Source: Candidatus Falkowbacteria bacterium
GTDB lineage: Bacteria; Patescibacteriota; Patescibacteriia; Patescibacteriales; UBA12465
Reading direction: 5' to 3'
Length of the DNA: 54,670 nt
Assembly: GCA_009995495.1 (NCBI GenBank)
Contig: JAACPL010000008.1
Coordinates: forward strand, 1-54,670
Of this stretch, positions 2,489 through 46,006 are shown in pieces. Position 1 is the stretch's first letter; each line of letters begins with the position of its first letter. A program made the translations under genes and the position numbers. The notes under the pieces were generated by a model. It was not told where the DNA came from, ran no database searches, and worked only from the letters and a program-made list of their open reading frames with translations.

Positions 2489-2496
2489 AACAATTC

Positions 2497-3591: not shown

Positions 3592-3607
3592 ATATTTACT
3601 TTTAATT

Positions 3608-5632: not shown

Positions 5633-5634
5633 TT

Positions 5635-6909
5635 TTATTTTTTTACTATTCTTTCTTTAGAATCAGAAAAATATTTTCTTAACACTTCTGGAATAAAAAT
5701 TGAGCCATCTTTTTCTTGATAATTTTCTAAGATTGCAATTAAACAACGCGTAATAGCGATAGCCGTTCCGTTTAGAGTATAAACAAATTCTTTATCTCCG
5801 TTTTCGCGTTTAAATTTAATATTGAGGCCACGTGCCTGATAATCACCACAATTTGAAGCAGAAGTTACTTCAGCCCAATCGCCGTCAGTACCGTCATTAT
5901 TTGGCTTACCCGGCATCCAGGCTTCAAGATCAAAAGTTCTCATTGAAGGCGCCCCTAAATCAGCCGTACAATGATCAACGATCCTGAAAGTTAAACCAAG
6001 TCCAGAAAATATTTCTTTTTCAATTTCTAATAATTCTTCGTGAGCCTTTTCTGAATCTTCTGGTTTTACAAATTGGAACATTTCTATTTTTGTGAATTGA
6101 TGGACACGAAAAATTCCTTTAGAAAATTTTGAATAAGAACCAGCCTCAGTTCTAAAACAGTGGGAAACGGCGGCATATTTTTTTGGTAAATCTTGTTCTT
6201 CTAAAATTTCGTCTTTATGTAAACCGCCTAAAGTAATTTCAGCCGTACCAATTAAACAAAGATCAGAATTTTCAATACTATAGACTTGAGTTGAATCGCC
6301 TCGCGGATTAAAGCCTAGCCCTTCAAGTACTTCTTTTTTAGCTAAATCTGGACTAGTAAAAATACCAAACCCCTTTTTAACTAAAATCTCTAAAGCGTAT
6401 TGGATTAAAGCAAATTCAAGTAAAGCTAAATCATTTTTTAAATAATAAAATTTTGCCCCGCTAACTTTCGTTGCTCTTTCAAACTCAATTAAATCTAGCT
6501 GGTTTGCTAATTCAACATGGTCAAGGGCTTTAAAATCAAATTTTTTAACTTCGCCAAATTGACCAATAATCGGATTATCATTTTCATCATCACTAACTTT
6601 AACATCTCTATGACTTAAGTTCGGAATACTCGCGTGAATTTTTTTGAATTCGTCCTCCTTCAAAGCCAAATTTTCTTCATCAGCTTTTAAATCTTCGCCC
6701 AACTTTTTCATCTTAGCAATTATTTCTTGGTCGGGTTTTGTTTTTGAATAACGATTTCTCTCCGCTCTTAATTCTTCAGCCTTAACTTTAAGGGTTCTAA
6801 TTTCCTCATCTAATTTTAAAAAATCAGAAATATTTACCGGCGCTAAACGATTGCGAGAATTATCTTCAACTAATTTCGGGTTTTCTCTGATAATTTTTAA
6901 ATCCAACAT
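5635..6909 (-). CDS. serS: Serine--tRNA ligase
   Basis: MLDLKIIRENP start, GTAE, FRTEAG, FRVHQFTKIEMF, TLNGTAIA class II motifs. Confidence 0.98.
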   Translation of the reverse strand: MLDLKIIRENPKLVEDNSRNRLAPVNISDFLKLDEEIRTLKVKAEELRAERNRYSKTKPDQEIIAKMKKLGEDLKADEENLALKEDEFKKIHASIPNLSHRDVKVSDDENDNPIIGQFGEVKKFDFKALDHVELANQLDLIEFERATKVSGAKFYYLKNDLALLEFALIQYALEILVKKGFGIFTSPDLAKKEVLEGLGFNPRGDSTQVYSIENSDLCLIGTAEITLGGLHKDEILEEQDLPKKYAAVSHCFRTEAGSYSKFSKGIFRVHQFTKIEMFQFVKPEDSEKAHEELLEIEKEIFSGLGLTFRIVDHCTADLGAPSMRTFDLEAWMPGKPNNDGTDGDWAEVTSASNCGDYQARGLNIKFKRENGDKEFVYTLNGTAIAITRCLIAILENYQEKDGSIFIPEVLRKYFSDSKERIVKK

Positions 6910-6938
6910 ATAATTTTATTATAAAATTCTTTTAAATT

Positions 6939-8612
6939 CTAATTGATTACTTCCCCACCGAAAGCATTTAATAAATTTCCCAGGGCATCTTCTGGTTGTT
7001 TTTTTTCTTCTGTTTTTTCTGTTTGAGGGATGATTGGGGTTTCGGAGCTATCAATTTCTGCTCCAATTTCTGAGCCAGAGCCAATCTTTAAATTTTCGTC
7101 AATTTCCGTCTTAAAGTCAAGTCCGGTACCATAAACTTCAGCCAAAACATTTTTAACAATTGTTCTAATATCATTTTCATTAACTCGGTTTTGGTGAAAC
7201 TTATATTTAAAGGCTAAGGAAAGGCAGGAATCTATAATTGCTTGAGGGTGACAACTTTGCATCACAAATGATAAAGAATGGTTGTGATTTTTAATTTTAA
7301 CTAAAAATTCTGGCCACTTGGCATAAACTTCTGCTTGCGATAAATTTTCTAAAACAATGTTTAAAGCTTTAGTTTCTGGTTTTTGCTCTTGAACTAAGTC
7401 TTTCTTTAAAACATTACTTTGACTAAAATTATCACTTTTTAAATTAGTCGTGATTAGCTTATTCACAACTTGCTTAGGCTTATTATCTCCAGCCCCATCT
7501 GAATCAACCCCATCTTTTAAACCAAGACAAATTTCGGCAATAGCAATTTCTAATGGTAATTGTGGAATGTTTTGACTTCTGTTATCGGAGCTGGCTATCA
7601 TAAACTTTTTAATGAGAAAAATTATTTCTTCTTCATTTAAAAGAGCTGATACTTGTAATAAATCTTTTTCTATTGTTTCTCCTAAATCAAGACCAAGACT
7701 ATCACTTAAGCCCGGACTAATTTTATCAAGCAATAAACGACGAGAAATCGCGATTAATTCGGCATTAAAATTTTTCATATTAATACCGCTATCACTTAAA
7801 CTATTTAATAAAATAAAAGCTTTAGCCGTATCTTTTTTGCTTAAATTTTTAATTAAACTAAGTGCTTCTCTATCACTAGCTGGCGGTAAAATTAAATCAG
7901 CTTGTTCTTTTTTAATTACCTTCCCGCCAATAGAAAGAATCTGCCCCAATAAACTTTCAGCGTCGCGCATATAACCACCACTTTTCTTTGCAATTGCTTC
8001 TAAGACTTCACGATCAATTTTAACTCCTTCCGTTTGTGTTATTTGGCTTAACTTTGTTAAAGTTTCAACTAAACTTATTTTTTTAAAATCAAAACGCTCA
8101 CAACGAGAAATTATAGTGCCGGGCACTTTTTGAATTTCTGTGGTGCACAAGATAAAAACAACATAAGTAGGAGGCTCTTCCATTATTTTAAGTAGGGCGT
8201 TAAAAGCTTGGAGCGATAACATGTGAACCTCGTCAATAATAAAAACTTTATACCTGCCATTGCTCGGGGCAATTCTAGAAAAAGAAATTATATTTTCTCT
8301 AACATTATCAACCCCGGTATTAGAAGCAGCGTCAATTTCTAAAACATCAAGATTATTTCCTTTTTTAATTGATAAACAATTATCACATTCATTACAAGGC
8401 TCAAAACTATCATCTTTGCGATTCAAACAATTTATCGCTTTAGCTAAAATTCTCGCTGTTGTTGTTTTACCAACTGCGCGTGGTCCACAAAATAAATAAG
8501 CATGGCCAAGATGCTTGGCTAAAATTTCATTTTGCAAAGTTAATTTAATATGATTCTGTCCTAAAACCTCGAAAAAATTATTAGGACGATAATCACGATA
8601 TAGAGTTGACAT
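6939..8612 (-). CDS. dnaX: DNA polymerase III subunit gamma/tau
   Basis: LYRDYRP, GPRAVGKTT, PCNECDNC zinc site, EIDAASNTGV, IIDEVHMLS, TIISRC. Confidence 0.97.
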   Translation of the reverse strand: MSTLYRDYRPNNFFEVLGQNHIKLTLQNEILAKHLGHAYLFCGPRAVGKTTTARILAKAINCLNRKDDSFEPCNECDNCLSIKKGNNLDVLEIDAASNTGVDNVRENIISFSRIAPSNGRYKVFIIDEVHMLSLQAFNALLKIMEEPPTYVVFILCTTEIQKVPGTIISRCERFDFKKISLVETLTKLSQITQTEGVKIDREVLEAIAKKSGGYMRDAESLLGQILSIGGKVIKKEQADLILPPASDREALSLIKNLSKKDTAKAFILLNSLSDSGINMKNFNAELIAISRRLLLDKISPGLSDSLGLDLGETIEKDLLQVSALLNEEEIIFLIKKFMIASSDNRSQNIPQLPLEIAIAEICLGLKDGVDSDGAGDNKPKQVVNKLITTNLKSDNFSQSNVLKKDLVQEQKPETKALNIVLENLSQAEVYAKWPEFLVKIKNHNHSLSFVMQSCHPQAIIDSCLSLAFKYKFHQNRVNENDIRTIVKNVLAEVYGTGLDFKTEIDENLKIGSGSEIGAEIDSSETPIIPQTEKTEEKKQPEDALGNLLNAFGGEVIN

Positions 8613-8638: not shown

Positions 8639-11149
8639 TTAAACTGCTCGGCGCTTAATTTCTGCTTCAACTAATTTTGAATTTTGACCATATTTTAAAC
8701 GACTAAGAGCCTTAATTCTTTCAGCCATCTGGGGATGTTTAGTTCCTAAAAGAGGCCAAATTCCTTTAAGCGTAAAGGGTCGAGTTGAACTATTGTCGAC
8801 CAATAACTTAATACAGGACATCCCCTTTTCAATATTAACTAAATCATATTCATTGAAAGTCGGAGCAAAATCTTTAATTAAAAAAGCAGCGTCATCAGAG
8901 CCAACTTTAAAACTAATCATGGTGCCAACGTTACCAAAAATTGCGTCTTTAATTTCAGTGTTATTATTTTTTGTTAGCTGACCGATGTACTGATGAGCAA
9001 TAATTAAATTAAGAGCATATTTTCTTGCCTCTGATAAAATCTGGCAAATTGAATTGGTTGTAAAATTTTGAAACTCATCGATATAAAGATAAAAATCTTT
9101 TCTATCTTCTGGCTTTATATCAGTTCTTGATAAAGAGGCCATTAAAATTTTACCAACCAAAATCATACCAAGTAAATAAGCATTCATCTCGCCAATTAAA
9201 CCTTTAGGTAAATCAATTAACAATATTTTTTGCTTGTCCATCACATCACGCATATTAAAAGAACTTTTTTGCTGGCCAATAATCGGACGCATCATGTCAT
9301 TAGAGATAAAAGCTGTTAGCTTAGAGGTGATATAAGGCACCATATTAGCTAAGGCCGCCTCACCGCCAGCCTTTTCCGCTTCTTTAGTCCAAAAATCAAC
9401 CACGGTCTGATTTTTACATTTACTAATTTTTAATCTTCTAAAATTTTCATCAGCTAAAACTTTTGAAATTTCCATTAAAGTTGAACCGCTTTCAATATCA
9501 TCCATTACCAACATCATCGCATTACGCATATATTGCTCAAACATCGGGCCTCCAGTTGCTTTTAAGTCATATAATTTATCAAAAATTCCAATCATTTCAT
9601 TGATAACAAAACCTTTTTGTTCTGGATAAGCGGGATCATAGTCAAGTAAATTAAGTCCCAGTGGTCTTTCTGTATCAGCTGGAGAAAAAATAATAACATC
9701 TTCAGCTCGTTCTGGCGGAATTCTATCTAAAATATCTTGAATTAAATCACCATTAGGATCAATAACACAAACTCCTTCCCCGTTTTGAATATCTTGAATT
9801 GCCATGTTATTTAAGGTGACAGACTTACCGGTTCCAGATTTACCAACTAAATAAGTATGACGACGTCTATCCTGTCTCTTAATCCTTATTTCTTTTTTAA
9901 CTCCACGATAAACGTTAGTGCCGAGCATAATACCTTCAGTTGGAACATCGGCTGGAGCTGGAGCAATCTTTGAAGTAAGCCATAAAATATTTGGTGTTTC
10001 TGTTGATTTTAGAGGAAAATGAAAAAGACTAGTTAACTCTTCAGTGTTTAAAAGAAAACTATGACTTTCGTTAAAACGACGATAAATAAAATCCGATATT
10101 TGTTTATCTAACGCTTGTTTTTTAGTATTTAAGCGAACCAAAACATTACCATAGCTAAAGTTACTGTATTCTGAAAAAGAATTACTTAAATTATCAAGAT
10201 AAATAGAAGCCTTTTCCTTGCTTTTAGTGCAACTAATAATTCTGATATTAACGTTAAGGCCGGCTTTAGCATTTTTTTCTTCAATATGTTTAACCATCTC
10301 CTCTTCAACTACGGTTAGTTTTTTTATTTCCTTCGGACTAGCATCAGGTTTTTTTGATGGAGCAAAGTAATCAAAAACTAACCCTAAAGATTTTAAAAAT
10401 TGAGCGCCTGGATTTGTCATCTTTATTCCTATAGAAATTGAGCCACTTTTATTAATATTTTCTACAACTTTTCTAATTCGTTTATGCCAAGAACCAAAAG
10501 CGCTTCTGACAACATATTGAATTACTAAGCTTTCATCCTTATCAAGTTTAGATAAAACATTAATCAAAGAATTCATCGGATCAGTCCCCATCTCCTTATA
10601 AGTTTTAATCGGAAAAATAAAGTCTCTTTTAGTTTTTAAATAAGCTGCCATTACTTGGCTATCTGGTTTAAAAATATTGTAATCTTCAACTTCATCAATG
10701 ACCGCTTCAGGATAGTTAGCATGAATTTGTTGCTCAATATAACGAGCATCTTTTTCTGGGGTAATAACATAAAAAGCAATTTTATTGGAGAGGGCGACAA
10801 TTTCAAAAGAAAAATGATCATCTCGACCAAAAAGCCAATGATTAAAACCTCTTTGTGCCTTAAGTCCACCGATTGAGGCAAAAATAGTTTCACCCTTAGC
10901 AATCTCTTCGATTAACTGTTGAACAGAAAAATCTTTTTTATCATCTTCTGGCTTTTCTTTTGGTAATTTAACTAAAAAAACCTTATGTTTAAAATAACGA
11001 GTTCCAGTCAAATATTTTCTCATTATTCGCAAGATTAAAAAAACTAAAAAGATAAAAGCTAGAAAAAAAATCAGCATCACCAAAATAGGCTCAAAATTAA
11101 AATTACTTTGATTTATTAAATTTAAATCCGCTGTACTTAAGTCTTGCAT
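8639..11149 (-). CDS. TraD/TrwB/VirD4-like (HerA-FtsK superfamily) ATPase with N-terminal TM, CPR type
   Basis: RRRHTYLVGKSGTGKS Walker A, VIDPNGDL, LYIDEFQNF Walker B, LSEARKY, AHQYIGQL. Confidence 0.85.
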   Translation of the reverse strand: MQDLSTADLNLINQSNFNFEPILVMLIFFLAFIFLVFLILRIMRKYLTGTRYFKHKVFLVKLPKEKPEDDKKDFSVQQLIEEIAKGETIFASIGGLKAQRGFNHWLFGRDDHFSFEIVALSNKIAFYVITPEKDARYIEQQIHANYPEAVIDEVEDYNIFKPDSQVMAAYLKTKRDFIFPIKTYKEMGTDPMNSLINVLSKLDKDESLVIQYVVRSAFGSWHKRIRKVVENINKSGSISIGIKMTNPGAQFLKSLGLVFDYFAPSKKPDASPKEIKKLTVVEEEMVKHIEEKNAKAGLNVNIRIISCTKSKEKASIYLDNLSNSFSEYSNFSYGNVLVRLNTKKQALDKQISDFIYRRFNESHSFLLNTEELTSLFHFPLKSTETPNILWLTSKIAPAPADVPTEGIMLGTNVYRGVKKEIRIKRQDRRRHTYLVGKSGTGKSVTLNNMAIQDIQNGEGVCVIDPNGDLIQDILDRIPPERAEDVIIFSPADTERPLGLNLLDYDPAYPEQKGFVINEMIGIFDKLYDLKATGGPMFEQYMRNAMMLVMDDIESGSTLMEISKVLADENFRRLKISKCKNQTVVDFWTKEAEKAGGEAALANMVPYITSKLTAFISNDMMRPIIGQQKSSFNMRDVMDKQKILLIDLPKGLIGEMNAYLLGMILVGKILMASLSRTDIKPEDRKDFYLYIDEFQNFTTNSICQILSEARKYALNLIIAHQYIGQLTKNNNTEIKDAIFGNVGTMISFKVGSDDAAFLIKDFAPTFNEYDLVNIEKGMSCIKLLVDNSSTRPFTLKGIWPLLGTKHPQMAERIKALSRLKYGQNSKLVEAEIKRRAV

Positions 11150-20735: not shown

Positions 20736-21281
20736 ATGGCTAAACAAATTTTAAATCAAGGGCGCCGGTGGTATGTTATTCATACTTATTCCGGCTACGA
20801 AGAAAATGTTGCCGAAAACCTGAAACAAAGAGTTGAGTCTCTTGATATGGAAGATAAGATTTTCAATGTCTTAATCCCAACTGAGAAAAAAATTAAAATT
20901 AAAAATGGTAAAAGAAAGGTTAGCGAAGAAAAAATCTTTCCTGGCTATATTTTAGTAGAAATGGAAGTAACTGATGAGTCTTGGTATATTGTTAGAAACA
21001 CCCCAAACGTTACTGGCTTTATCGGAACCGGAACTATCCCAACACCGATTGGCGAAGAAGAGGTTAAATCTTTACAAAAAAGAATGGGAGTTGAAGATCC
21101 TAAATTTCAAATTGATGTTAGCGAGGGTACTCCGGTTATAATTAATGAAGGACCATTTAAAAATATGGAAGGAAAGGTTACTTCCGTTGATGAAGCTAAG
21201 GGTAAAGTTAAAGTCTCAGTTTCAATGTTTGGTCGAGAAACTCCAGTTGAATTAGATTTTTTACAAATTAGAAAAGTATAA
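20736..21281 (+). CDS. nusG: Transcription factor NusG
   Basis: WYVIHTYSGYE, FPGYILVEM, KOW GPF, MFGRETPVELDF. Confidence 0.98.
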   Translation: MAKQILNQGRRWYVIHTYSGYEENVAENLKQRVESLDMEDKIFNVLIPTEKKIKIKNGKRKVSEEKIFPGYILVEMEVTDESWYIVRNTPNVTGFIGTGTIPTPIGEEEVKSLQKRMGVEDPKFQIDVSEGTPVIINEGPFKNMEGKVTSVDEAKGKVKVSVSMFGRETPVELDFLQIRKV

Positions 21282-21327
21282 TATTAAGATACGAAAATAG
21301 CGCTTCTCTGTTTTCAATAATAAATTT

Positions 21328-21750
21328 ATGGCAAAAAAAATAAAAACAAAAATTAAATTACAAATTTCTGGTGGCCAAGCTAATCCAGCCCCTCCAGTCG
21401 GTCCAGCCTTAGGCCAACACGGCTTAAATATCGCAGCTTTTTGTAAAGAATTTAATGATAGAACTAAGGATCAGATGGGAGATGTTATTCCGGTTGAAAT
21501 TACTGTTTACGAGGATAGAAGTTATGACTTCGTTCTTAAAACCTCCCCAGCTTCTGAATTAATTAAAAAAGCTGCTGGAATTAAAAAGGGATCTGGCAAA
21601 CCTTTAACTGAAAAAATTGGCTCTATTACTGACGCTCAATTAACTGAAATTGCCGAAAAAAAGATGAGTGACTTAAGTGCTCACAATATTGAAGCAGCTA
21701 AAAAAATTATTGCTGGTACCGCTAGACAAATGGGTGTAGAAATTAAATAA
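21328..21750 (+). CDS. rplK: 50S ribosomal protein L11
   Basis: [24 protein letters not shown]. Confidence 0.98.
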
Positions 21751-21766
21751 TTAATTAACAATAATT

Positions 21767-21812
21767 GTGGGAGCTTGGATTAATTAATAAATTAAAGCTA
21801 AGCGATAACCAC
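21767..21812 (+). promoter_or_regulatory. Putative L1-binding autoregulatory RNA between rplK and rplA
   Basis: GTGG-GAG...AA-CCAC helix closing an AGCTT/AAGCT inner stem just before the rplA start; typical form and position of L1 target sites. Confidence 0.7.
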
Positions 21813-21823
21813 GACCAAAATCT

Positions 21824-22528
21824 ATGGAAAAGAAAATTAAGTCTCCGAAAGTAATCAAGGCCAAAAAAATTGATAACAGCAGTATTTATGATAAGAATAA
21901 AAGCTATTCTTTAAACGAAGCGATTAAAATTGTTAAAAGTATTACCAAAACTAAATTTGACGCTTCAGTTGAAGTTCACTTTCGTCTAGGAATTAATACT
22001 AAGAAAAGTGATCAACAAATCAGAGGAGCAGTTTCTCTACCACACGGAACTGGAAAAACTATTAAGATTGCCGCTTTTGTCAGTCCAGAAAATGAAGCTG
22101 CTGTGAAAGCCGCTGGAGCTGACTTTGTTGGTGGTGAAGATTTAGTAGCAGAAATCAAAAAGACTGAAAAAACTGATTTTCAAGTGGCGATTGCCGAAGT
22201 TTCAATGATGAGAACTTTAGCTCAAATTGCTAAAATATTAGGAACCAGAGGTTTAATGCCTTCCCCTAAAAATGATACTGTTACTCAAAATCCAGTTAAA
22301 GCAGTTGAAGAATTAAAGAAAGGGAAAATTAGTTTTAAAAATGATGATACGGGAAACCTACACGCTATTATTGGTAAAGTAAGTTTTAGTGATGATAAAT
22401 TAGCTGAAAATTTTAATAGCCTCCTTGAGACTATCAGAAAAGCTAAACCATCCGCCTCTAAAGGAACTTTTATCAAGAATACTAGCCTCTCCTCTTCAAT
22501 GAGCACTGGTGTTAAAGTTAGCTTATAA
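21824..22528 (+). CDS. rplA: 50S ribosomal protein L1
   Basis: KFDASVEVHFRLG, DQQIRGAVSLPHGTGK, LGTRGLMPSPK. Confidence 0.98.
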   Translation: MEKKIKSPKVIKAKKIDNSSIYDKNKSYSLNEAIKIVKSITKTKFDASVEVHFRLGINTKKSDQQIRGAVSLPHGTGKTIKIAAFVSPENEAAVKAAGADFVGGEDLVAEIKKTEKTDFQVAIAEVSMMRTLAQIAKILGTRGLMPSPKNDTVTQNPVKAVEELKKGKISFKNDDTGNLHAIIGKVSFSDDKLAENFNSLLETIRKAKPSASKGTFIKNTSLSSSMSTGVKVSL

Positions 22529-23083: not shown

Positions 23084-23716
23084 TTAATCTTCAAGATCTA
23101 TTTCAACGACAGTTTCATTATTAATTACTTGATCCTCTAAGGCTCCGGGATTTTCATTTTCTAATAAAACAGGAGAATCAGAACTAGTTCGAGTTTCTAA
23201 ATCAATTTCTAGACCAGTAATTGGCGCCATATTAATGTCTTTATTTAAATCCCAAATACTATAATTTAAGAAAGCAGCGAAGGTGACCCAAAGAATATAA
23301 GGAATAAGTAAATAGGCGGCAACTTTATTGATTTGATAAAAAGCTAAAATAGTTGCTAAAATTGCAAACCAAAGAGAAATAATTTCAGTTAAGGCAATTC
23401 CTGGATTTTGTAAACCAAAGAAAATAAAAGACCAAAAAAGATTAAGCGCTAATTGAAAAATAAATATTAATAAAGCAAAACGAATTTCTTTTTTATTTAG
23501 CCCCAGACGCCAAATTAAAAAGGCAGAAACACCCATTAAAACATAAAGAAGAGTCCAGACTGGCCCAAAAAGCCAATTAGGCGGGTTAAAGGCGGGCTTC
23601 TCAATTAAATTATACCAACTATTAACGCCCGTATCAGTAAATAAAGCCCCAATAATTGCAAATAATTGTGGAATAATTAAAGCAATAATAAGTTTAATAA
23701 AATTTTTATTTTTCAT
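23084..23716 (-). CDS. tspO: TspO/MBR tryptophan-rich sensory protein with acidic C-terminal tail
   Basis: WYNLIEKPAFNPPNWLFGPVWT, QLALNLFWSFIFF, LIPYILWVTFA. Confidence 0.93.
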   Translation of the reverse strand: MKNKNFIKLIIALIIPQLFAIIGALFTDTGVNSWYNLIEKPAFNPPNWLFGPVWTLLYVLMGVSAFLIWRLGLNKKEIRFALLIFIFQLALNLFWSFIFFGLQNPGIALTEIISLWFAILATILAFYQINKVAAYLLIPYILWVTFAAFLNYSIWDLNKDINMAPITGLEIDLETRTSSDSPVLLENENPGALEDQVINNETVVEIDLED

Positions 23717-33655: not shown

Positions 33656-34126
33656 CTATTTGACCTTAGTTTTGGTTTTGGTTTTTTTAACTTTAACTTT
33701 AGCCTTAACTTTTTTAAGAACAGGCTTTTTCTTCCCCTTCTTCCCCTTCTTCTCCTCCTCCATCTCATAATTCTCAATCGCTTTTTTAAGGCCCTGAACT
33801 GCCATCACTGAGCAATGAACTTTTTGAGTTGGTAAACCGCCAAGCTCGCTCACAATTTTTTGCCAAGGATATTTTTTCGCCGCTATAACCGTCATGCCTT
33901 TAACCTTCTCCGTTAAAATTGAGGCAGTCGCAATATTAGAAGCGCAACCAAAAGACAAAAACTTAACATCCTTAATCTTCCCTTTCTCAACTTTAAGAAA
34001 AAAATCAAGCTGATCACCGCAAGTCATATTTCCGACTTGAGCATAACCGTCAGGATTAGAAATTTTACCAATATTTTTTGGTTTTAAAAAGTTGTCTAGA
34101 GTTTTTTTAGTATAATTTAGAGCCAT
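33656..34126 (-). CDS. iscU: Fe-S cluster scaffold IscU/NifU-N with Lys-rich tail
   Basis: GNMTCGD, FGCASNIA, KVHCS three-Cys pattern; downstream of the cysteine desulfurase. Confidence 0.9.
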   Translation of the reverse strand: MALNYTKKTLDNFLKPKNIGKISNPDGYAQVGNMTCGDQLDFFLKVEKGKIKDVKFLSFGCASNIATASILTEKVKGMTVIAAKKYPWQKIVSELGGLPTQKVHCSVMAVQGLKKAIENYEMEEEKKGKKGKKKPVLKKVKAKVKVKKTKTKTKVK

Positions 34127-34137
34127 ATATAAATATT

Positions 34138-35325
34138 TTATTTTTTAGTTTTTGATTTAGACTTAGCAGGAGTTTTAACCGGAGAAAAACTTCTTAAACG
34201 CGCGACCGTTTCTTTAAGGGCTTTAATCGTATAGTCAATTTCTTTTTTAGTATTATATTTTCCTAGGGAAAAACGGATATTGCTATTTAAATTATAAGCT
34301 TCAAGACCAATCGCTCGAAGAACATAGGAGCTTTTTAAATTTGAAGCCGAGCAAGCCGATCCGGTAGAAACAGAAATTCCTTTATAGGCTAAGTCCATTA
34401 AAATTGCCTCGCCCTCAATTGAGCCAAACATAATATTTAAGTTGGCGGGCACTCTTGATTTTAAACAACCATTAACTTTTAGGCCTTTAATTTCTTTATT
34501 TAAAGAACGCCAAAGATAATCTCTTAGAGTTCTAACATTTTTTAAATAACTTGATCGTTCTTTATAAGCAATTTTTAAAGCTTCGGCTAAACCAATTATA
34601 CCCGGAAGATTATGCGTTCCCGCTCTATGATTTTCTTCCTGTCCGCCGCCAACTATTTGCGCTTTAATCTTAAGTCCCGGTTTAATATAGGCTAAGCCAA
34701 CTCCTTTCGGTCCATTAAATTTATGAGCCGATAAACTAAAAAAATCTAAGCCCATTTTTTCCGCTTCTATTTTTAAGTATGGAATTGCTTGAACTATATC
34801 GCTATGAAAATAAGCGCCGAACTTATGGGTAATTTTAGCTAGAGTCGTAATGTCATTTATCGTGCCAATTTCATTATTAACCGCCATAACGGAGACGAGC
34901 AAAACCTTATCATCAATTTTTTTCTCAAGTTCAGAACTTTCAATAATTCCTCTTTTATTCGCTTTTAAATAATCTAATTCAAAACCTTCGTCCGCTAATT
35001 CGCGCGCCGCTTCTAAAACAGCCGGATGTTCAAGTTCAGAAACTAAAATTTTATTTTTTTGACTTGTTCTATTAGCCCGCGCAAAACCTTTGATTATTAA
35101 ATTATTGGCCTCAGTCGCGCTCGCAGTAAAAATAATTCCTCTCGTTTGGGCGCCTAAAATTTCTGCAACTTCGTTTCTCGCCTTTTCTAAAGCAAGATAA
35201 AGGGCTTGACCTTCTAAATGGATTGAGGAAGGATTAGCGTATTTATCAAGCAAATAAGGCTTCATCGCCGCAAAAACGCGCGAGTCAAGTTTGGTTGTGG
35301 CTGAATTATCAAGATAAACTTTCAT
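34138..35325 (-). CDS. iscS: Cysteine desulfurase IscS/NifS
   Basis: YLDNSATT, ANPSSIH, SAHKFNGPKG (PLP Lys), STGSACS (catalytic Cys). Confidence 0.95.
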   Translation of the reverse strand: MKVYLDNSATTKLDSRVFAAMKPYLLDKYANPSSIHLEGQALYLALEKARNEVAEILGAQTRGIIFTASATEANNLIIKGFARANRTSQKNKILVSELEHPAVLEAARELADEGFELDYLKANKRGIIESSELEKKIDDKVLLVSVMAVNNEIGTINDITTLAKITHKFGAYFHSDIVQAIPYLKIEAEKMGLDFFSLSAHKFNGPKGVGLAYIKPGLKIKAQIVGGGQEENHRAGTHNLPGIIGLAEALKIAYKERSSYLKNVRTLRDYLWRSLNKEIKGLKVNGCLKSRVPANLNIMFGSIEGEAILMDLAYKGISVSTGSACSASNLKSSYVLRAIGLEAYNLNSNIRFSLGKYNTKKEIDYTIKALKETVARLRSFSPVKTPAKSKSKTKK

Positions 35326-40921: not shown

Positions 40922-42682
40922 TTAATTATTATCCTTAGTTGAGGTTAAAATTGAACCCTTGCTTTTTTTAAAACCGGTATGAAGCAATTGTTTCGCTAAA
41001 CCATTTTCTTTAGCAAAATTATAAAAAGCTAACATCTCTTTATTTTCATGAGCGCGTCTAATCGTTCTCTTTTTATCTAAATTATATAAGCCAGCCATTC
41101 TTTTTTCTTTAATTGCTTTGGTTGTTGGAATTGGTTGGCCACCGCCGCCCAAACAACCACCGGGACAGGCCATCACTTCAATATAATGGTATTTACTAAA
41201 GTTTGGTAAGAGTTTAGAAAAATTACCCAAGCCATTAACAACCGCAAGTTTATACTTTTTCCCGCCGAGCTTAACTTCCGCCTCTTTAATTCCTTCTAAA
41301 CCGCGGACCTCTTTAAACTCTAAGCGAGCATCACAAAGCGGGTCTTTTCCTTTTTCGCAAACAAAAGAAGCAACCGAGCGCAAAGCCGACTCCATTACTC
41401 CACCGCTAGCACCATAAATTGCCGCTGCCCCTGAGCCAGCATTAAACATCGGCTCTAATTTACCGTCAGGCAAATTAACAAAGTCTATCCGATTTTTTTT
41501 AATTAAAAAAGCTAGCTCTCTGGTCGTTAAAACGAAATCAACTAAAGGCTTACCTTTATATTTTAATTCCGGTCTAATCGCTTCATATTTTTTCGCCGTA
41601 CAAGGAACAACCGAAACAACAATAATATCTTCCGCTTTTAAGTTTTTCTTTTTTGCCCAATAAGCTTTAATCGCACCCCCGCCGTGGATATGGGGTGAGC
41701 GAGCGGTTGTTAGGTGGGGCAATAATTCGGGATGATAAAATTCGGCATAAGCCACCCAAGCTGGACAGCAAGAAGTTGTCATCGGCCAAATCGCTTTTTT
41801 ATCAGCTAATCGTTCCATAAACTCTTCTGCCTCCGTCATCGTTGTAATATCGGCCGCAAAATTAATGTCAAAAATATAATTAAAACCGAGTTTCTTTAAG
41901 GCGCTAACAATTTTACCCTCACAATTAGTTCCATAAGGCAAACCAAAAGATTCACCAAGCGAAACGCGAACCGCTGGAGCAAACTGAACAACGACCGTCT
42001 TCCCTTTTAATTTTAATAATTTTTCCAGTTCTAAACTTTGATCTTGTTCCTGGGCGGAAGCAACCGGACAATGCAAGGCGCATTGACCACAATAAACACA
42101 GGCAAATTTTTTATCTTTTTTCGGCACTATTTCCTGGTCAATTCCCTTACCGCTTAATTCTAAATAGGAAATTCCCTGATTAACACAGGCTTCAAGACAA
42201 TTACGACAATCAATACATTGAGTTCCGTCAATTTCAACCGCATTAGCGAATTTATAAGTTTTACGAGTTTTTTTTCTGTCTTTAAACCGACTAACTTCTA
42301 AATCATATTCCTTAGCCGTGCTTAAAAGATTACAATCAAAACGATAAGAACAACCGCCGCACCTTTCAACATGAGAAGCGTAAATTAATTCTAAATTAGT
42401 TTCTCTCGCTTTTTTAACGCGCTCGTTATCAGTAATAATCTCCATCCCCTCCTCAACTAAAGTTGAACAAGATGTTTTTAATTTAACTGATCCTTTTATC
42501 TCAACCACGCAAACACGACAATTGGCTTTCACGCTTAAATCGGGATGATAACAAAAAGAAGGAATATTTATTTTATTCCGCCTCGCTAAAGTTAAAACTG
42601 TTTCACCTTCATAGGCTAAAACTAATTTGCCGTTTAACTTAATTTTAAAAGTTTTCGGCTCTTTTTTAATTATTTTTTTCAT
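40922..42682 (-). CDS. hydA: [FeFe]-hydrogenase catalytic subunit, group A, with 2Fe-2S, His-ligated 4Fe-4S and two 4Fe-4S clusters
   Basis: H-cluster motifs TSCCPAW, VPCTAKKYE, EVMACPGGCLGGGGQP; F-domain C..CRVC..C, HVERCGGC..DC, CIDCRNCLEAC, CVYCGQCALHCP; likely start MKKII at 42682. Confidence 0.95.
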   Translation of the reverse strand: MKKIIKKEPKTFKIKLNGKLVLAYEGETVLTLARRNKINIPSFCYHPDLSVKANCRVCVVEIKGSVKLKTSCSTLVEEGMEIITDNERVKKARETNLELIYASHVERCGGCSYRFDCNLLSTAKEYDLEVSRFKDRKKTRKTYKFANAVEIDGTQCIDCRNCLEACVNQGISYLELSGKGIDQEIVPKKDKKFACVYCGQCALHCPVASAQEQDQSLELEKLLKLKGKTVVVQFAPAVRVSLGESFGLPYGTNCEGKIVSALKKLGFNYIFDINFAADITTMTEAEEFMERLADKKAIWPMTTSCCPAWVAYAEFYHPELLPHLTTARSPHIHGGGAIKAYWAKKKNLKAEDIIVVSVVPCTAKKYEAIRPELKYKGKPLVDFVLTTRELAFLIKKNRIDFVNLPDGKLEPMFNAGSGAAAIYGASGGVMESALRSVASFVCEKGKDPLCDARLEFKEVRGLEGIKEAEVKLGGKKYKLAVVNGLGNFSKLLPNFSKYHYIEVMACPGGCLGGGGQPIPTTKAIKEKRMAGLYNLDKKRTIRRAHENKEMLAFYNFAKENGLAKQLLHTGFKKSKGSILTSTKDNN

Positions 42683-42745
42683 TAGGATTAACAAAATTTG
42701 AGTTAATATGATGCTAACTCTTAATTCTCTTTAAATCTTTATAAA

Positions 42746-43822
42746 TTAAACTTTCTCAACTCCTTTTATATTCCGATAATAACTTAAAAGCGGGATTGGT
42801 AAAGATGAGCCAAGGGCGCAAAAACTACTATCATCAAGAGCAGAAACTATGTCCCAAAAAATTTTCTGGTCATAAGTCTTGGCTTTTATCATTTCATATA
42901 AACGATAAGTTCCTTCACGACAAGTAAGGCATTGTCCGCAACTATTATTAAAATAAAACTTCAACCAATACTCAATTAATTTTTTCTCATCCGTTTTATT
43001 CTTATCATAAACCATAATTGAAGCGGCGCTATCAGCTGGAACATTAATTTGTTCTTTATTTAATATTTCACCACTAGCATTCCCGCCAATTTGAACAAAA
43101 AAATCAAAATTAGGATAATTAGCACTTTGCTTTAAAACATTTTCAATCGGCATTAAAGCAGGAAAACGATAAACCCCTGGCTTTTTAATAGCCCCGGAAA
43201 TAGTATAAAATCTATCACCGCGATATTCATCCTTAGCAACTAATGCAACATCAAAAAAAGTTTCAACATTATTAATTAAAGTTGGTTTAGAAAATAAGCC
43301 GGAAGTGGTCGGAAAGGGTGGACGAATTCTTGGTTCCCCCTTCTTACCTTCAATAATATTTAACATTGAGCTTTCTTCCCCGCCAATATAACCAGCATCT
43401 AATGGTTTAGAAAAAAACTCAACTTTTTTTTCTAAATCACTATATTTTTTATCAGCTAAAATTTTTCTTATTTTATTCGCCGAACTCTTGATATAAGTTT
43501 TATTAAGAAAAAGATAAATTTTTTTAACTTTATTCTTACCTAAAAATTCAAAAGCTAAATTTAAACCAAAAATAAAATCTTCTGGATGTTTTTCTAAAAT
43601 AAAAGCATCTTTTTTTACTCCGGGTTCGCCCTCGGCGCCATTAACAACAATATAAGCCTCTTTTTCAGATTTAAGCGCTTCTTCAACCGCCTTCCATTTC
43701 CAAGCAACAGGATAACCAGCTCCCCCTCGACCAACTAAAGCCGCTGATTCAATTTTATTAATCAAATCAACATGAGTGGCGCCGTTTTTCTTTAAAGAAG
43801 TCTTCTTTGTTTTGGCTTTCAT
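42746..43822 (-). CDS. Short NuoF/HydB-like FMN/NADH-binding diaphorase subunit
   Basis: GRGGAGYP..WKW, NGAEGEPG, YIGGEESS, PRIRPPFP, INNVET, CGQCLTCREG...FCALG; only 358 aa. Confidence 0.9.
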   Translation of the reverse strand: MKAKTKKTSLKKNGATHVDLINKIESAALVGRGGAGYPVAWKWKAVEEALKSEKEAYIVVNGAEGEPGVKKDAFILEKHPEDFIFGLNLAFEFLGKNKVKKIYLFLNKTYIKSSANKIRKILADKKYSDLEKKVEFFSKPLDAGYIGGEESSMLNIIEGKKGEPRIRPPFPTTSGLFSKPTLINNVETFFDVALVAKDEYRGDRFYTISGAIKKPGVYRFPALMPIENVLKQSANYPNFDFFVQIGGNASGEILNKEQINVPADSAASIMVYDKNKTDEKKLIEYWLKFYFNNSCGQCLTCREGTYRLYEMIKAKTYDQKIFWDIVSALDDSSFCALGSSLPIPLLSYYRNIKGVEKV

Positions 43823-43835
43823 CTTTTTAATTTCT

Positions 43836-44846
43836 TTAATTAATTTTTCGTAAATACTCAGTCAAACCAACTAATCTCTCCGAATAAGCCCATTCATTAT
43901 CATACCAAGCAACAACTTTTAATAAATCTCCACCAACCAATTTCATCATCCCTAAATCAACCACGGCACTATGAGGATTACCAACAATATCACTAGAAAC
44001 TAATTCCGCTTCCGAAGCTTCAATTATCCCTTTTAATTTTCCTTTAGCAGCCTTCTTAAAAACATCTTTAACCGCTTCAATCGTCGTTTTTTTATTTAAA
44101 AGATAAACCGTATCACATAAAGAACCGACTGGAACGGGAACACGAACCGCTAAACCGTCAAAAGAGCCTTTAAGATTTGAAAAAATTTCAGTAGTAGAAA
44201 TTGCGGCGCCAGTAGTTGTTGGAACTATATTAATTGCGGCCGCTCTAGCTCGACGCAAATCACGGTGCGGACCGTCAACTAAATTTTGGTCAGCCGTATA
44301 AGCATGGATAGTAGTCATTAAAGCCTTTCTAATACCAAAAGAATCTTTAATAACCTTGGTTGTTGGTGCTAAACAATTTGTTGTACAAGAGGCACAAGAT
44401 AAAAGATCATCAGATTTTTTAAGACTTTCCATATTAACTCCCGGAACAATAGTCTTAACGCCACCGCCTTTAGCCGGAGCTGATAAAATAACTTTCTTAG
44501 CGCCGGCCTTAAGATGGAGCTCTAAAGCTTCTTTATTAGTAAAACGACCAGTACATTCTAAAACGATATCTACTTTTAATTTTTTCCAAGGGAGCTCTAA
44601 TGGATCTTTAATTGCTAAAACAGGAATTTTATCATCATTAATTGTAATAAAATCAGAGCCAGCCTTAATTTTATCAGTTAAAACACCGTAGCAGGAATCA
44701 TGTCCATAAAGATGGGCTAAAGTTTTTGGATCAGTTAAGTCATTAATAGCCACAACTTTTAAGCTTGGATATTTAGTTTTAATAATTTTCAAAGTGGCTC
44801 GACCAATACGGCCAAAACCATTAATGGCAACATTTGCTTTTTTCAT
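43836..44846 (-). CDS. gap: Glyceraldehyde-3-phosphate dehydrogenase, type I
   Basis: INGFGRIGR, ASCTTNCLAP, WYDNEW. Confidence 0.98.
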   Translation of the reverse strand: MKKANVAINGFGRIGRATLKIIKTKYPSLKVVAINDLTDPKTLAHLYGHDSCYGVLTDKIKAGSDFITINDDKIPVLAIKDPLELPWKKLKVDIVLECTGRFTNKEALELHLKAGAKKVILSAPAKGGGVKTIVPGVNMESLKKSDDLLSCASCTTNCLAPTTKVIKDSFGIRKALMTTIHAYTADQNLVDGPHRDLRRARAAAINIVPTTTGAAISTTEIFSNLKGSFDGLAVRVPVPVGSLCDTVYLLNKKTTIEAVKDVFKKAAKGKLKGIIEASEAELVSSDIVGNPHSAVVDLGMMKLVGGDLLKVVAWYDNEWAYSERLVGLTEYLRKIN

Positions 44847-44921
44847 ATTTTCTTATTAAATTTAAATTAGTTTTTTTAAAAAACAAGATAATTATAACAT
44901 AAAATATAAAATCAGCCAAAC

Positions 44922-44948
44922 AAAAAATCCGCTAAAAAGCGGACTTTT
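44922..44948 (-). terminator. Intrinsic terminator after rplL
   Basis: Minus strand GTCCGCT-TTTT-AGCGGAT followed by a T run. Confidence 0.8.
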
Positions 44949-44991: not shown

Positions 44992-45387
44992 TTATTTTAA
45001 AGTTACTTTAGCTCCAGCTTCTTCTAATTTCTTCTTTAAAGCTTCAGCATCTTCTTTCTTAACGCCTTCTCTTAAAACTTTTGGTGCAGCATCAACTAAG
45101 TCTTTAGCTTCTTTCAAGCCCATCTCAGTGATTTCACGAACAGCTTTAATAACAGCAATCTTATTAGCTCCAACTTCAGTGATTTCAACATCAAAAGCAT
45201 CTTTTTCTTCAACTGCTTCAGCGCCTACTGCTGGTCCAGCCATCATCATTGCTGGCGCAGAAGCGCTAACACCAAACTTTTCTTCTAGAATCTTAACTAA
45301 TTCAGCTAAGTCTAAAACACTCATTTTTTCAATTTCGCCGACTAATTTTTCAAATTTTGCCGGTACTTCTACATTTTTTTCTTCCAT
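44992..45387 (-). CDS. rplL: 50S ribosomal protein L7/L12
   Basis: [37 protein letters not shown]. Confidence 0.98.
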
Positions 45388-45478
45388 ACTTTTATGTGAC
45401 CCTTAATTTGAGATAAAGCACAAATCAGGAATCTTATTTTAATTTTTATAATTAATTAAATGAAATTTATTATTTTAT

Positions 45479-46006
45479 TTATTTTTTCTCAGCTACCGAC
45501 TTTAATACAGTCACCAAGCCTCTTAAATTACCAGCCATAACATTGACGAAACCAGAAATTGGCGCATTCAATGAACCAACCAATTTAGCATAAAGCTCTT
45601 GCTTGCTTGGTAATTTAGCTAAAGCTTCAACCTGAGATTGGCTTAGAAACTTACCATCCAAAATTCCACCAAGAAAAACAATCTTACCCGCCTTTTCCTT
45701 ATCCTTTAAGAAATTGCCTAAAATTTTAGCAGAAGCAACCTCATCCTCATAAGAAAAAACAGCAGCAACTTTTCCGTCTAAAGCTTTAACATCAACCTCA
45801 ATCTTATTTTCTTTAAGAGCTAAATCAAGTAAAGTTTTTTTAGCAACATAATATTCGCTATTTTCTGCTCTTAATTTAGATCTTAAAACTTCGTTGTCCT
45901 TAACTCCTAAAGCATTAAAGCCGGCGAAAACGACGGATTTTGACTTTTTGATTCTTTCATTAAGGTCGCGGAAGATTTCTTGTTTTTGAATTTTATTCTT
46001 CGGCAT
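45479..46006 (-). CDS. rplJ: 50S ribosomal protein L10
   Basis: LRSKLR, VAKKTL, LAKLPSKQEL; upstream of rplL. Confidence 0.95.
   Translation of the reverse strand: MPKNKIQKQEIFRDLNERIKKSKSVVFAGFNALGVKDNEVLRSKLRAENSEYYVAKKTLLDLALKENKIEVDVKALDGKVAAVFSYEDEVASAKILGNFLKDKEKAGKIVFLGGILDGKFLSQSQVEALAKLPSKQELYAKLVGSLNAPISGFVNVMAGNLRGLVTVLKSVAEKK

Follow-up and report, generated by a model that had tools for sequence, protein, structure and literature searches.

A gap-linked NuoF-like/HydA pair in Patescibacteria as a candidate NADH-linked [FeFe] hydrogenase without NuoE

Introduction

Can an [FeFe] hydrogenase with only two subunits re-oxidize the NADH of glycolysis by making H2? The question is raised by three adjoining genes in a 54,670-nucleotide stretch of DNA from a Candidatus Falkowbacteria bacterium (GenBank assembly GCA_009995495.1, contig JAACPL010000008.1, positions 1 to 54,670), which we refer to as the window. 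These genes, gap, hydB and hydA, encode a glyceraldehyde-3-phosphate dehydrogenase (GAPDH), a minimal NuoF-like (hydB-like) flavoprotein and the catalytic subunit of a group A [FeFe] hydrogenase. An earlier reading of the window by a model that saw its letters and predicted translations (the sequence-only reading) had proposed that the three genes recycle glycolytic NADH directly to H2. Our computational follow-up leans, with slightly better than even confidence, towards a NuoE-less, two-subunit, non-bifurcating, NADH-linked [FeFe] hydrogenase that would re-oxidize glycolytic NADH. The earlier interpretation is partly supported; what it missed is the absence of the maturases HydE, HydF and HydG.

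The analysis covered the window's genome (939,803 bp in 48 contigs, 94.9% complete and 0.37% contaminated, the window being contig 23), 60 relatives from its genus (36) and from other families of its order (24), which make 61 genomes together with the window's own, and an even draw of 300 genomes from the phylum.

Conservation of the gap-hydB-hydA cluster

The sequence-only reading had described gap, a 358-aa NuoF-like gene 13 nt further on and a group A hydA as co-oriented, and the coordinates, the strand, the spacer and the group A model TIGR02512 all bear this out. The first gene encodes a type I GAPDH with both domains present (TIGR01534, 392.2 bits against a cut-off of 367.2). Each of the three genes occurs once in the genome, gap being its sole copy by a single tblastn match.

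We found a hydB-like protein in 47 of the 60 relatives (29/36 in the genus and 18/24 in other families of the order). Two of the matches are fragments at contig ends, and all 45 full-length cases were examined, 29 loci with flanks of 1.5 kb and 16 more with flanks of 5 kb. Upstream of hydB, on the same strand and within 5 kb, gap is present in 42 of the 45 (27/27 in the genus, 15/18 in other families), a recurrence that argues against a chance juxtaposition and upholds the gap linkage on which the sequence-only reading depended and which we also treated as a refutation check. The exceptions are G037, whose contig ends ~100 bp upstream, G048, which has a 1-kb flank only, and G047, with no gap in 5 kb. 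Downstream, hydA follows hydB in 44 of 45 loci; the remaining one (L015) has nothing within its 1.5-kb flank. The three genes, gap, hydB-like and hydA, are a cluster conserved in one order of Patescibacteria-like bacteria (candidate phyla radiation, CPR). In one relative, G055, viewed with wider flanks, gap lies 1.8 kb from hydB with a methyltransferase-like open reading frame (ORF) in between.

The window's compact gap-hydB-hydA form is a minority arrangement. Most congeners carry a short-chain dehydrogenase (SDR; adh_short_C2) between gap and hydB, and a ~250-aa polytopic membrane protein between hydB and hydA; this protein matches UPF0259 weakly, and a crude hydropathy scan gives it five to six hydrophobic segments. 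Among 29 loci, the order is gap-SDR-hydB-membrane-hydA in 11, gap-hydB-membrane-hydA in 10, gap-SDR-hydB-hydA in 4, gap-hydB-hydA in 2, and gap-SDR-hydB and hydB-hydA in 1 each. The window's genome holds no homologue of the membrane protein, and its cluster has lost both the SDR and the membrane gene.

Across the phylum draw, the hydB-like protein gave 17 matches at E 1e-20, of which 14 lie in frames of 333–395 aa and 3 are long canonical forms. A full hydA adjoins in 11 of the 14 holders and a protein resembling the iron–sulfur (FeS) N-terminus of HydA in 2; the contig of the last is too short. In 4 of the 14, which belong to other classes of the phylum, gap is directly upstream. The NuoF-like genes of three of these four loci (L059-L061) are nearest to a protein, P0151, that falls outside the clade of short proteins described below, so more than one NuoF-like lineage has probably gained or kept the GAPDH/NuoF-like link. 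Glycolytic neighbours recur elsewhere too: the NuoF-like gene of L059 sits within a gap...pgk-tpi-fba operon, and pyruvate kinase lies beside a fused NuoF-like/HydA gene in L043 (Table 1). In L059 and the similar L060, a NuoF-like protein of 384–395 aa is accompanied by an FeS protein of 213–214 aa that resembles the N-terminus of HydA and has no H domain. Here a glycolytic operon, from another class of the phylum, includes an NADH/FeS module that lacks a hydrogenase site.

The NuoF-like subunit

The sequence-only reading had limited the beta subunit to FMN/NADH, SLBB and one 4Fe-4S motif, and Pfam agrees: it matches Complex1_51K and NADH_4Fe-4S, with SLBB only weakly matched (20.1 bits, cut-off 27), and no other FeS domain. 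A NuoE-like domain, the [2Fe-2S] domain at the N-terminus and the 2x[4Fe-4S] domain at the C-terminus are all missing. Alignments to PDB structures span residues 14-353 of the 358, which leaves no space for extra domains. A respiratory NuoF is not indicated either, with a TIGR01959 score of 184.8 bits against a cut-off of 558.65, no NuoE partner and a separate clade in trees. The protein stands at about equal distance from the solved structures of HoxF (146.6 bits), the tungsten FDH beta subunit (144.9), bifurcating HydB (134.7–140.7) and NuoF (~134). Its AlphaFold2 (AF2) model (pLDDT 91.6) superposes on HydB, FdhB, NuoF and HoxF chains with TMq of 0.81–0.84 at 24–28% identity.

The ligands of FMN, NADH and the N3 cluster are conserved across 40 family members: N61, E64, Y145, G148, E149, E187, C295, C298 and C335 are invariant in the family alignment and C301 is conserved in at least 90%. 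As the sequence-only reading had noted, the window protein reads EGEPGVKKD, and GGNASG in place of GGPSG; it also reads GYIGGEES. Aligned to Acetobacterium woodii HydB, it has Tyr for Phe and Lys for Met of the bifurcating subunit. Published criteria assign Ala/Glu232, Met234, Phe367 and GGPSG to bifurcating beta subunits, and Thr/Ser232, Lys/Ser/Ala234, Tyr367 and no GGPSG to non-bifurcating ones (Losey 2020, PMC7311640). The window protein does not carry the bifurcating set, and at three of the four positions (Lys234, Tyr367, no GGPSG) it matches the non-bifurcating subunits. Family members share the signature E[GS]EPG-V-x-K-D with Y-[IVL]-[GSA]-GEE. In the nearest sequences outside the family the counterparts are EGEPGTFKD and YICGEET; the small number of bifurcating-type sequences sampled have EGDPGAFMD, FVCGEET and GGPSG, along with a ferredoxin-type motif.

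An exhaustive HMMER search of 1.84 billion representatives with the hydB-like protein returned 262 matches at E 1e-30. Proteins of 320–365 aa occupy the top ranks, above ~180 bits, and longer NuoF, HoxF, FdhB and HydB proteins follow without a break at ~135–170 bits. FastTree placed 26 of 138 rows in one clade with local support 99, comprising 21 short proteins, P0121, P0135 and three fusion proteins. A quick IQ-TREE of 67 rows gave the same split (SH-aLRT 94); because this subset was chosen after the FastTree result, it serves as a consistency check and not as an independent test. On these trees, the window protein belongs to a distinct clade of short proteins of about 320-365 aa. The hydB-like protein is common, with 7,159 of 8,000 scored candidates in a 90%-clustered collection matching at E 1e-10. 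Where such proteins are named, it is mostly as 'NADH:ubiquinone oxidoreductase subunit F' or 'NADH-ubiquinone oxidoreductase-F iron-sulfur binding region domain-containing protein'; named homologues bear the label 'Patescibacteria group bacterium'. In other families of the order, members (L062, L064, L078 and P0122) carry a C-terminal tail of ~25 residues, closed by a conserved KxICECFK-like motif with two cysteines, and the window protein is without this tail.

The catalytic subunit

HydA has the full M3 architecture: a [2Fe-2S] domain (Fer2_4), a NuoG-type His-ligated [4Fe-4S] site, 2x[4Fe-4S], the H domain (Fe_hyd_lg_C) and a fused small-subunit tail (Fe_hyd_SSU). It passes the group A model TIGR02512 with 437.9 bits against a cut-off of 405.95. 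Scores for two narrower models fall below their cut-offs, 618.8 against 765 for NF040763 (A6, NADH-dependent) and 498.1 against 900 for NF040762 (clostridial ferredoxin type). End to end, HydA aligns to 8a6t_A, the HydA1 subunit of a bifurcating HydABC, with 424.6 bits and to CpI (4xdc_A) with 416.6 bits.

The H-cluster motifs of the window protein are TSCCPAW, VPCTAKKYE and MACPGGCLGGGGQP. They conform to the group A patterns TSCCPxW, PCxxKxxE and ExMxCxxGCxxGGGQP, known as the L1, L2 and L3 motifs, the third reading EVMACPGGCLGGGGQP here. All five cluster sites of HydA, cysteines included, are invariant in an alignment of 23 sequences. The H-cluster motifs are also present in 29 of the 29 full-length HydA ORFs that a filter recovered from 36 loci; these are 28 distinct sequences, L010 and L056 being the same chromosome, and the other seven loci have truncated, divergent or filter-missed HydA ORFs.

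The closest relative, L007, has the order rplJ-rplL-gap-hydB-hydA and 80–96% protein identity. Against it, dN/dS is 0.070 for hydA, which indicates strong purifying selection, 0.071 for gap and 0.20 for the hydB-like gene. The record title of L007, 'uncultured Gammaproteobacteria bacterium', is at odds with its Patescibacteria-like genes and probably mislabels the record.

Absence of NuoE and fusion of the two subunits

The sequence-only reading had reported no NuoE/HydC gene, a claim that also served as a refutation check and that holds well beyond the window. The family of this subunit, PF01257, has no match in the window's genome and none in the relatives (0/61 overall), including two single-contig genomes that carry hydB (G005 and G007). 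As a positive control, the same family was found in 8 of 14 known genomes. The canonical bifurcating or confurcating HydABC mechanism is excluded because there is neither NuoE/HydC nor any of the extra HydB clusters, and thus no ferredoxin branch. One could still suppose that the enzyme is a regular bifurcating HydABC, with HydC and the extra domains encoded at another place in the genome or lost in assembly. The genome is a draft, and a classifier using the neighbouring NuoF-like gene alone would probably say group A3 (in line with HydDB practice for group A; PMC10867827). This supposition is largely refuted and hardly credible: PF01257 is absent even from single-contig hydB carriers, the beta subunit is without the FeS domains and has the Tyr and Lys residues and no GGPSG, and the fusion proteins described next contain no NuoE part.

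Two proteins join the subunits in one chain. In P0134 (918 aa) and P0136 (885 aa), an M3 HydA begins within ~10 residues of the end of a short NuoF-like module, and neither protein contains a NuoE part. P0134 is a single uninterrupted ORF under translation table 11 on a 101-kb metagenome contig, and the same sequence was recovered from three sources. Within the short clade, P0134 and P0136 branch apart, and each has an unfused sister, which suggests two independent fusion events. The junction of P0136 reads 'G M' and may be a TGA read-through under code 25, so the fusion argument rests mainly on P0134. In Peribacteria and Gracilibacteria loci the two genes are separate and overlap at ATGA. Together, the fusions, the adjacency and the overlaps mark HydB and HydA as predicted partners that would work together without NuoE. 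A 900-aa frame in L052 was rejected as a further fusion; it is a spurious stop-free frame on a GC-rich contig, where hydB is a separate 338-aa ORF.

The short flavoprotein may also serve NiFe enzymes. In P0144 (702 aa, a metagenome protein), the short NuoF-like module is fused to a domain resembling the small subunit of NiFe hydrogenases. In L063 (G049), a locus from one family of the order, hydB-hydA is followed at 4356-6472 by genes for NiFe small-subunit-like (159 aa) and large-subunit-like (486 aa) proteins.

Proposed mechanism and the points against it

In the mechanism that we propose, GAPDH would reduce NAD+, and the resulting NADH would bind the minimal NuoF-like subunit and pass a hydride to FMN. 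Electrons would then travel from FMN, one at a time, to the subunit's single N3-type [4Fe-4S] cluster, on to the [2Fe-2S] and His-ligated [4Fe-4S] clusters in the NuoG-like N-terminus of HydA, and down its pair of [4Fe-4S] clusters to the H-cluster, the site at which protons would be reduced to H2. The order FMN-N3-[2Fe-2S]-[4Fe-4S] would be the same as in complex I, in which the NuoE cluster lies off the main electron path. NADH-driven H2 formation by this route would be feasible at low H2 pressure only. The sequences establish the content in genes and domains, their conservation and linkage, the natural fusions and the lack of NuoE and of maturases; the binding of the subunits, the specificity for NADH, the direction of the reaction and activity in vivo are our inference. 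The small number of alternative NADH sinks supports this reading: the window's genome has no L-LDH/MDH domain, no NiFe hydrogenase, no aldehyde dehydrogenase and no Rnf. To Fe-ADH it has only a sub-threshold match.

A number of observations weigh against an NADH-to-H2 enzyme of this kind, and its weakest points are the missing maturases, the as yet hypothetical subunit interface and a pyruvate:ferredoxin oxidoreductase (POR) with no other visible outlet. Some of them concern the flavoprotein. At Thermotoga maritima HydB position 232 the window protein has Val, which is in neither published class, and family-wide, Gly, Ser or Ala stands in place of the Cys in YxCGEE. All biochemically characterized NuoF-type hydrogenase modules have a NuoE partner or domain (PMC7311640, PMC13556243): the HydB of S. 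aciditrophicus is a NuoE-NuoF fusion, S. wolfei has Hyd1C, and C. churrovis needs NuoE. No such module is found in the gene, the genome or the relatives. The non-bifurcating, NADH-dependent type put forward by the sequence-only reading therefore stands as far as Lys, Tyr and the missing GGPSG are concerned and falters on NuoE, which the known group always has (PMC7311640, PMC13556243). The AF2 fold of the fusion P0134 (pLDDT 88.1, pTM 0.67) has confident modules, a disordered linker and an uncertain orientation of the two modules.

Other points concern the flow of electrons. A generic D-2-hydroxyacid dehydrogenase and an SDR homologue are encoded in the genome as possible NADH sinks. The genome also has a pyruvate kinase. 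Since these two dehydrogenases could take NADH, and POR may feed HydA, the sequence-only reading went beyond the evidence in making the organism dependent on an H2-consuming partner; an obligate dependence is not shown. The genome encodes a PorCDAB-type, four-subunit POR. An NCBIfam scan matched PorC, PorD and PorA (G000:C40:66-3064, L081); the fourth ORF of the cluster, of 324 aa, has no NCBIfam match at E 1e-10 and is assumed to be PorB. We found no flavodoxin, no Rnf, no NiFe or other hydrogenase and no free 2x[4Fe-4S] ferredoxin besides PorD in the window's genome, the last by a crude motif scan that misses other ferredoxin types, which leaves HydA as the only visible outlet for POR electrons.

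HydA might, then, chiefly serve low-potential electrons. It would be a ferredoxin- or POR-driven H2 valve like monomeric CpI, with which it aligns end to end, and the NuoF-like subunit would be a side entry or exit through which NADH shares one FeS chain with low-potential electrons, giving mixed-input H2 production or NADH:ferredoxin exchange in place of a dedicated NADH:H2 enzyme. We regard this as unlikely. The strict pairing with hydB (44/45), the existence of fusions and the linkage to gap favour NADH as a designed input, the CpI-type NCBIfam model scores under the A6 model (both below their cut-offs, as given above), and no ferredoxin gene was identified. Given the POR, mixed input of NADH and low-potential electrons to the same HydA is quite plausible.

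The pair could also run in the uptake direction, as an H2:NAD+ oxidoreductase that supplies NADH from groundwater H2. Reduction of NAD+ by H2 is thermodynamically favoured under standard conditions, the characterized HydAB works both ways (PMC7311640), and the window's sequence occurs in 24 sequencing runs from aquifer, groundwater and cold-spring metagenomes. The linkage to NADH-producing glycolytic genes (gap, pyk and others) speaks for the opposite direction, our searches for respiratory chain modules (NuoE, Rnf and NiFe hydrogenase) were all negative, and no large NADH-consuming pathway was obvious. We give the uptake direction very little credence.

A further objection to an active NADH-to-H2 enzyme is that hydrogenase activity itself is unproven, because HydE, HydF and HydG are absent. 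The window's genome matches neither HydG nor HydE, and its top match to HydF is a generic GTPase with 77.9 bits against a cut-off of 325.55. Among the 61 genomes of the relatives draw, HydG and HydE each occur in one, G055; the phylum draw yielded HydG in 6 of 301 genomes, with a single case among the 14 short-hydB holders. The single-contig genomes G259 and G274 have the hydB-hydA pair and no HydG. To our knowledge, there is no route to the [2Fe] subcluster without HydE, HydF and HydG, so activity in vivo would require an H-cluster maturation route independent of them. In G055 the maturases form a hydG-hydE-hydF operon (L079, G055:C52:2080-5918) on a contig with a GC content of 0.361, against 0.388 for the hydBA contig.

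Taken at face value, the near-absence of maturases suggests an enzyme without hydrogenase activity in vivo, whose HydA stays apo ([4Fe-4S]H only) and whose two subunits act as an NADH:acceptor diaphorase or an electron wire towards another acceptor. L059 and L060, in which a gap-linked NuoF-like protein is paired with an FeS protein lacking the H domain, indicate that the NADH/FeS module can serve without a hydrogenase site. We hold such a loss of function to be decidedly improbable. The CC pair, PCxxKKxE and GCxxGGGxP are kept in 29 of 29 full-length HydA ORFs from lineages 40–60% identical, hydA has a dN/dS of only 0.07, the NuoF-like proteins of L059-L061 lie outside the short clade, and archaea and protists without maturases still make active enzyme (PMC11216029).

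The paradox is thus that maturases are nearly absent and yet the H-cluster motifs and the coding sequence of hydA are under strong constraint. Archaea present a parallel, with a full maturase set in 5 of 130 genomes and an alternative pathway proposed (PMC11216029). A membrane protein with 4-6 helices is noted next to group A enzymes (PMC11216029), and the polytopic gene between hydB and hydA in the window's relatives may correspond to the 'hyd6TM' of Greening et al. 2024; we mention this as a lead only. We tentatively entertain a wider proposition, which seems to us rather doubtful as a whole: that many Patescibacteria have an active [FeFe] hydrogenase without HydEFG, matured by another route or with a [2Fe] cofactor or precursor derived from a host or neighbour, combined with the smallest known natural NADH input module (a single NuoE-free flavoprotein of ~340 aa) hard-wired to GAPDH, as the minimal sugar-to-H2 valve of this radiation.

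Evidence on transcription adds two further points on the unfavourable side. A scan of the region showed no obvious terminator past hydA in the downstream gene array, which runs on and leaves the 3' end of the transcription unit open, and none of the 24 sequencing runs that contain the stretch is an RNA run.

Transcription signals and surrounding genes

All coordinates are collected in Table 1. The TTG start of hydA has an alternative, an ATG at 42682 that would give 586 aa, so that the spacer between the NuoF-like gene and hydA is 51 nt (TTG) or 63 nt (ATG). Upstream of gap lie rplJ and rplL. The sequence-only reading had placed the start of the cluster after the rplL terminator, and a hairpin with a U-run is indeed present there (44945-44921). 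Its predicted free energy is −14.4 kcal/mol (z −3.77), and an equally good fold occurred in 0 of 200 shuffles; a simple terminator scanner did not have this hairpin in its list. The promoter candidate lies ~45 nt upstream of the gap ATG and was called by consensus match alone; a promoter scan of the whole region gave 20 sites against a mean of 20.9 in shuffled sequence, no excess. Downstream, an alpha/beta hydrolase gene begins 12 nt past hydA, followed by Mur-ligase and Ddl genes.

Table 1 Features of the gap-hydB-hydA locus and of related loci
Feature	Locus	Coordinates	Strand	Basis or remark
gap, type I glyceraldehyde-3-phosphate dehydrogenase, 336 aa	Window	43836..44846	-	TIGR01534, Gp_dh_N + Gp_dh_C
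hydB-like, minimal NuoF-like flavoprotein, 358 aa	Window	42746..43822	-	Pfam Complex1_51K, NADH_4Fe-4S, weak SLBB
hydA, M3-type group A [FeFe]-hydrogenase catalytic subunit, 590 aa from TTG	Window	40922..42694	-	Pfam + NCBIfam
Intrinsic-terminator-like hairpin + U-run, directly after rplL stop codon	Window	44921..44945	-	RNA fold
Sigma-70-like promoter candidate, TTGGCT-17-TATAAT with upstream TG	Window	44891..44919	-	10/12 consensus matches
Locus with NuoF-like/HydA fusion gene (918 aa)	L043	2612-6757		Fusion gene begins one base after pyruvate kinase stop
Inserted genes of congeners (two), example	L017 (of L014-L039)	2615-3343	-	
Inserted genes of congeners (two), example	L014 (of L014-L039)	2536-3297	+	
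Operon of gap, NuoF-like, HAD hydrolase, FeS protein, 120-aa ORF, pgk, tpi, class II fba	L059 (G171)	1303-8214		L060 (G072) alike

Several further features of these loci are recorded here. The order nusG-rplK-rplA-rplJ-rplL-rpoB is broken in the window: nusG-rplK-rplA lies at 20736-22528 (+) and rplJ-rplL at 44992-46006 (−), 23 kb apart, and rplL is followed by gap-hydB-hydA, not by the usual rpoB. FeS-assembly genes, NifU/IscU-like and a cysteine desulfurase (class V aminotransferase), are found at 33656-35325 (−), ~5.6 kb downstream of hydA on the same strand. An 836-aa protein at 8639-11149 (−) has weak matches to the TrwB/TraG/T4SS coupling proteins, with no single stretch passing. At 23084-23716 (−) lies a TspO/MBR family membrane protein (170 bits), unexpected for so small a genome. 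In L043, the fusion gene is followed by an unrelated ORF for a polytopic membrane protein of 240 aa.

Discussion

How does this pair compare with hydrogenases that have been studied? A close parallel is the HydAB of S. aciditrophicus, which when purified forms H2 from NADH without ferredoxin, at 2.2–40.2 Pa (PMC7311640). Like the window's pair, it consists of two polypeptides, with a NuoF-like beta subunit that has none of the bifurcation-type FeS domains and carries residues of the Tyr/Lys type. Its 66-kDa HydB, however, fuses NuoE-like (HydC) and NuoF-like parts, whereas the window protein is shorter and has no NuoE part; the window protein also has Val rather than Thr/Ser at position 232. 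The Syntrophomonas wolfei Hyd1ABC and Caecomyces churrovis Hyd-NuoE-NuoF enzymes likewise combine an M3-like HydA with a NuoF-type flavoprotein (PMC7311640, PMC13556243). They are non-bifurcating, NADH-dependent and ferredoxin-independent, properties that the window's pair would share. Unlike it, they have three components, with a separate NuoE/HydC, and their maturases are present or were supplied experimentally.

The bifurcating HydABC enzymes of Thermotoga maritima, Acetobacterium woodii and Thermoanaerobacter kivui (PDB 7p5h, 7q4w/8a5e and 8a6t) share the HydA architecture and the core fold of HydB. They differ from the window's pair in having HydC, an N-terminal [2Fe-2S] and C-terminal 2x[4Fe-4S] in HydB, and the motifs EGDPGAFMD, FVCGEE and GGPSG. 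Clostridium pasteurianum CpI (PDB 4xdc), a monomeric, ferredoxin-dependent M3 enzyme, has the same five FeS and H-cluster sites as the window HydA. CpI has no flavoprotein partner, whereas hydA here almost always adjoins a NuoF-like gene and is sometimes fused to it. A natural fusion of HydA with an NADH-dehydrogenase module has been published and taken as evidence for NADH-dependent H2 formation; that fusion includes a NuoE-like part, unlike P0134 and P0136, in which a NuoF-like N-terminus leads to HydA with no NuoE.

In the lack of HydEFG, the small genome, the probably symbiotic life and the conserved H-cluster sites, the window system resembles the [FeFe] hydrogenases of DPANN and other archaea (PMC11216029). 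Its organisms, by contrast, are bacteria. The archaeal group A3 clusters include HydC, and a gap linkage is not mentioned in the parts of that paper available to us. Because the characterized enzymes of the known non-bifurcating group all have a NuoE module, we set the window system outside that group. As far as its genes tell, it is outside all characterized groups and is a variant of the NADH-linked [FeFe] hydrogenases.

Among the full texts that we searched, which did not extend to subscription journals or supplementary tables, we found no published account of a NuoE-less short HydB/HydA pair, of the gap linkage or of the lack of maturases in CPR bacteria; supplementary tables of hydrogenase surveys may already list these genes. 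An earlier Peribacteria genome paper describes hydA as a lone subunit, 'other subunits not identified' (PMC4736985). In the Peribacteria locus L008, a NuoF-like gene lies directly upstream of hydA and overlaps it at ATGA. The NuoF-like/hydA pairing therefore seems under-recognized.

If active, this would be the simplest NADH-to-H2 enzyme known, made of two subunits, or of one polypeptide in the fusions, with no NuoE. It would bear on the need for the NuoE [2Fe-2S] cluster in this enzyme superfamily and would make an attractive minimal module for engineered H2 production. The near-total absence of maturases alongside a strongly conserved H-cluster site extends to bacteria a puzzle posed by DPANN archaea and some protists, and offers dozens of small, nearly complete genomes in which the missing maturation route can be sought by phylogenetic profiling. 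For a large uncultured group of groundwater bacteria, an active enzyme would provide a concrete mechanism of redox balance and a testable link to H2-consuming neighbours.

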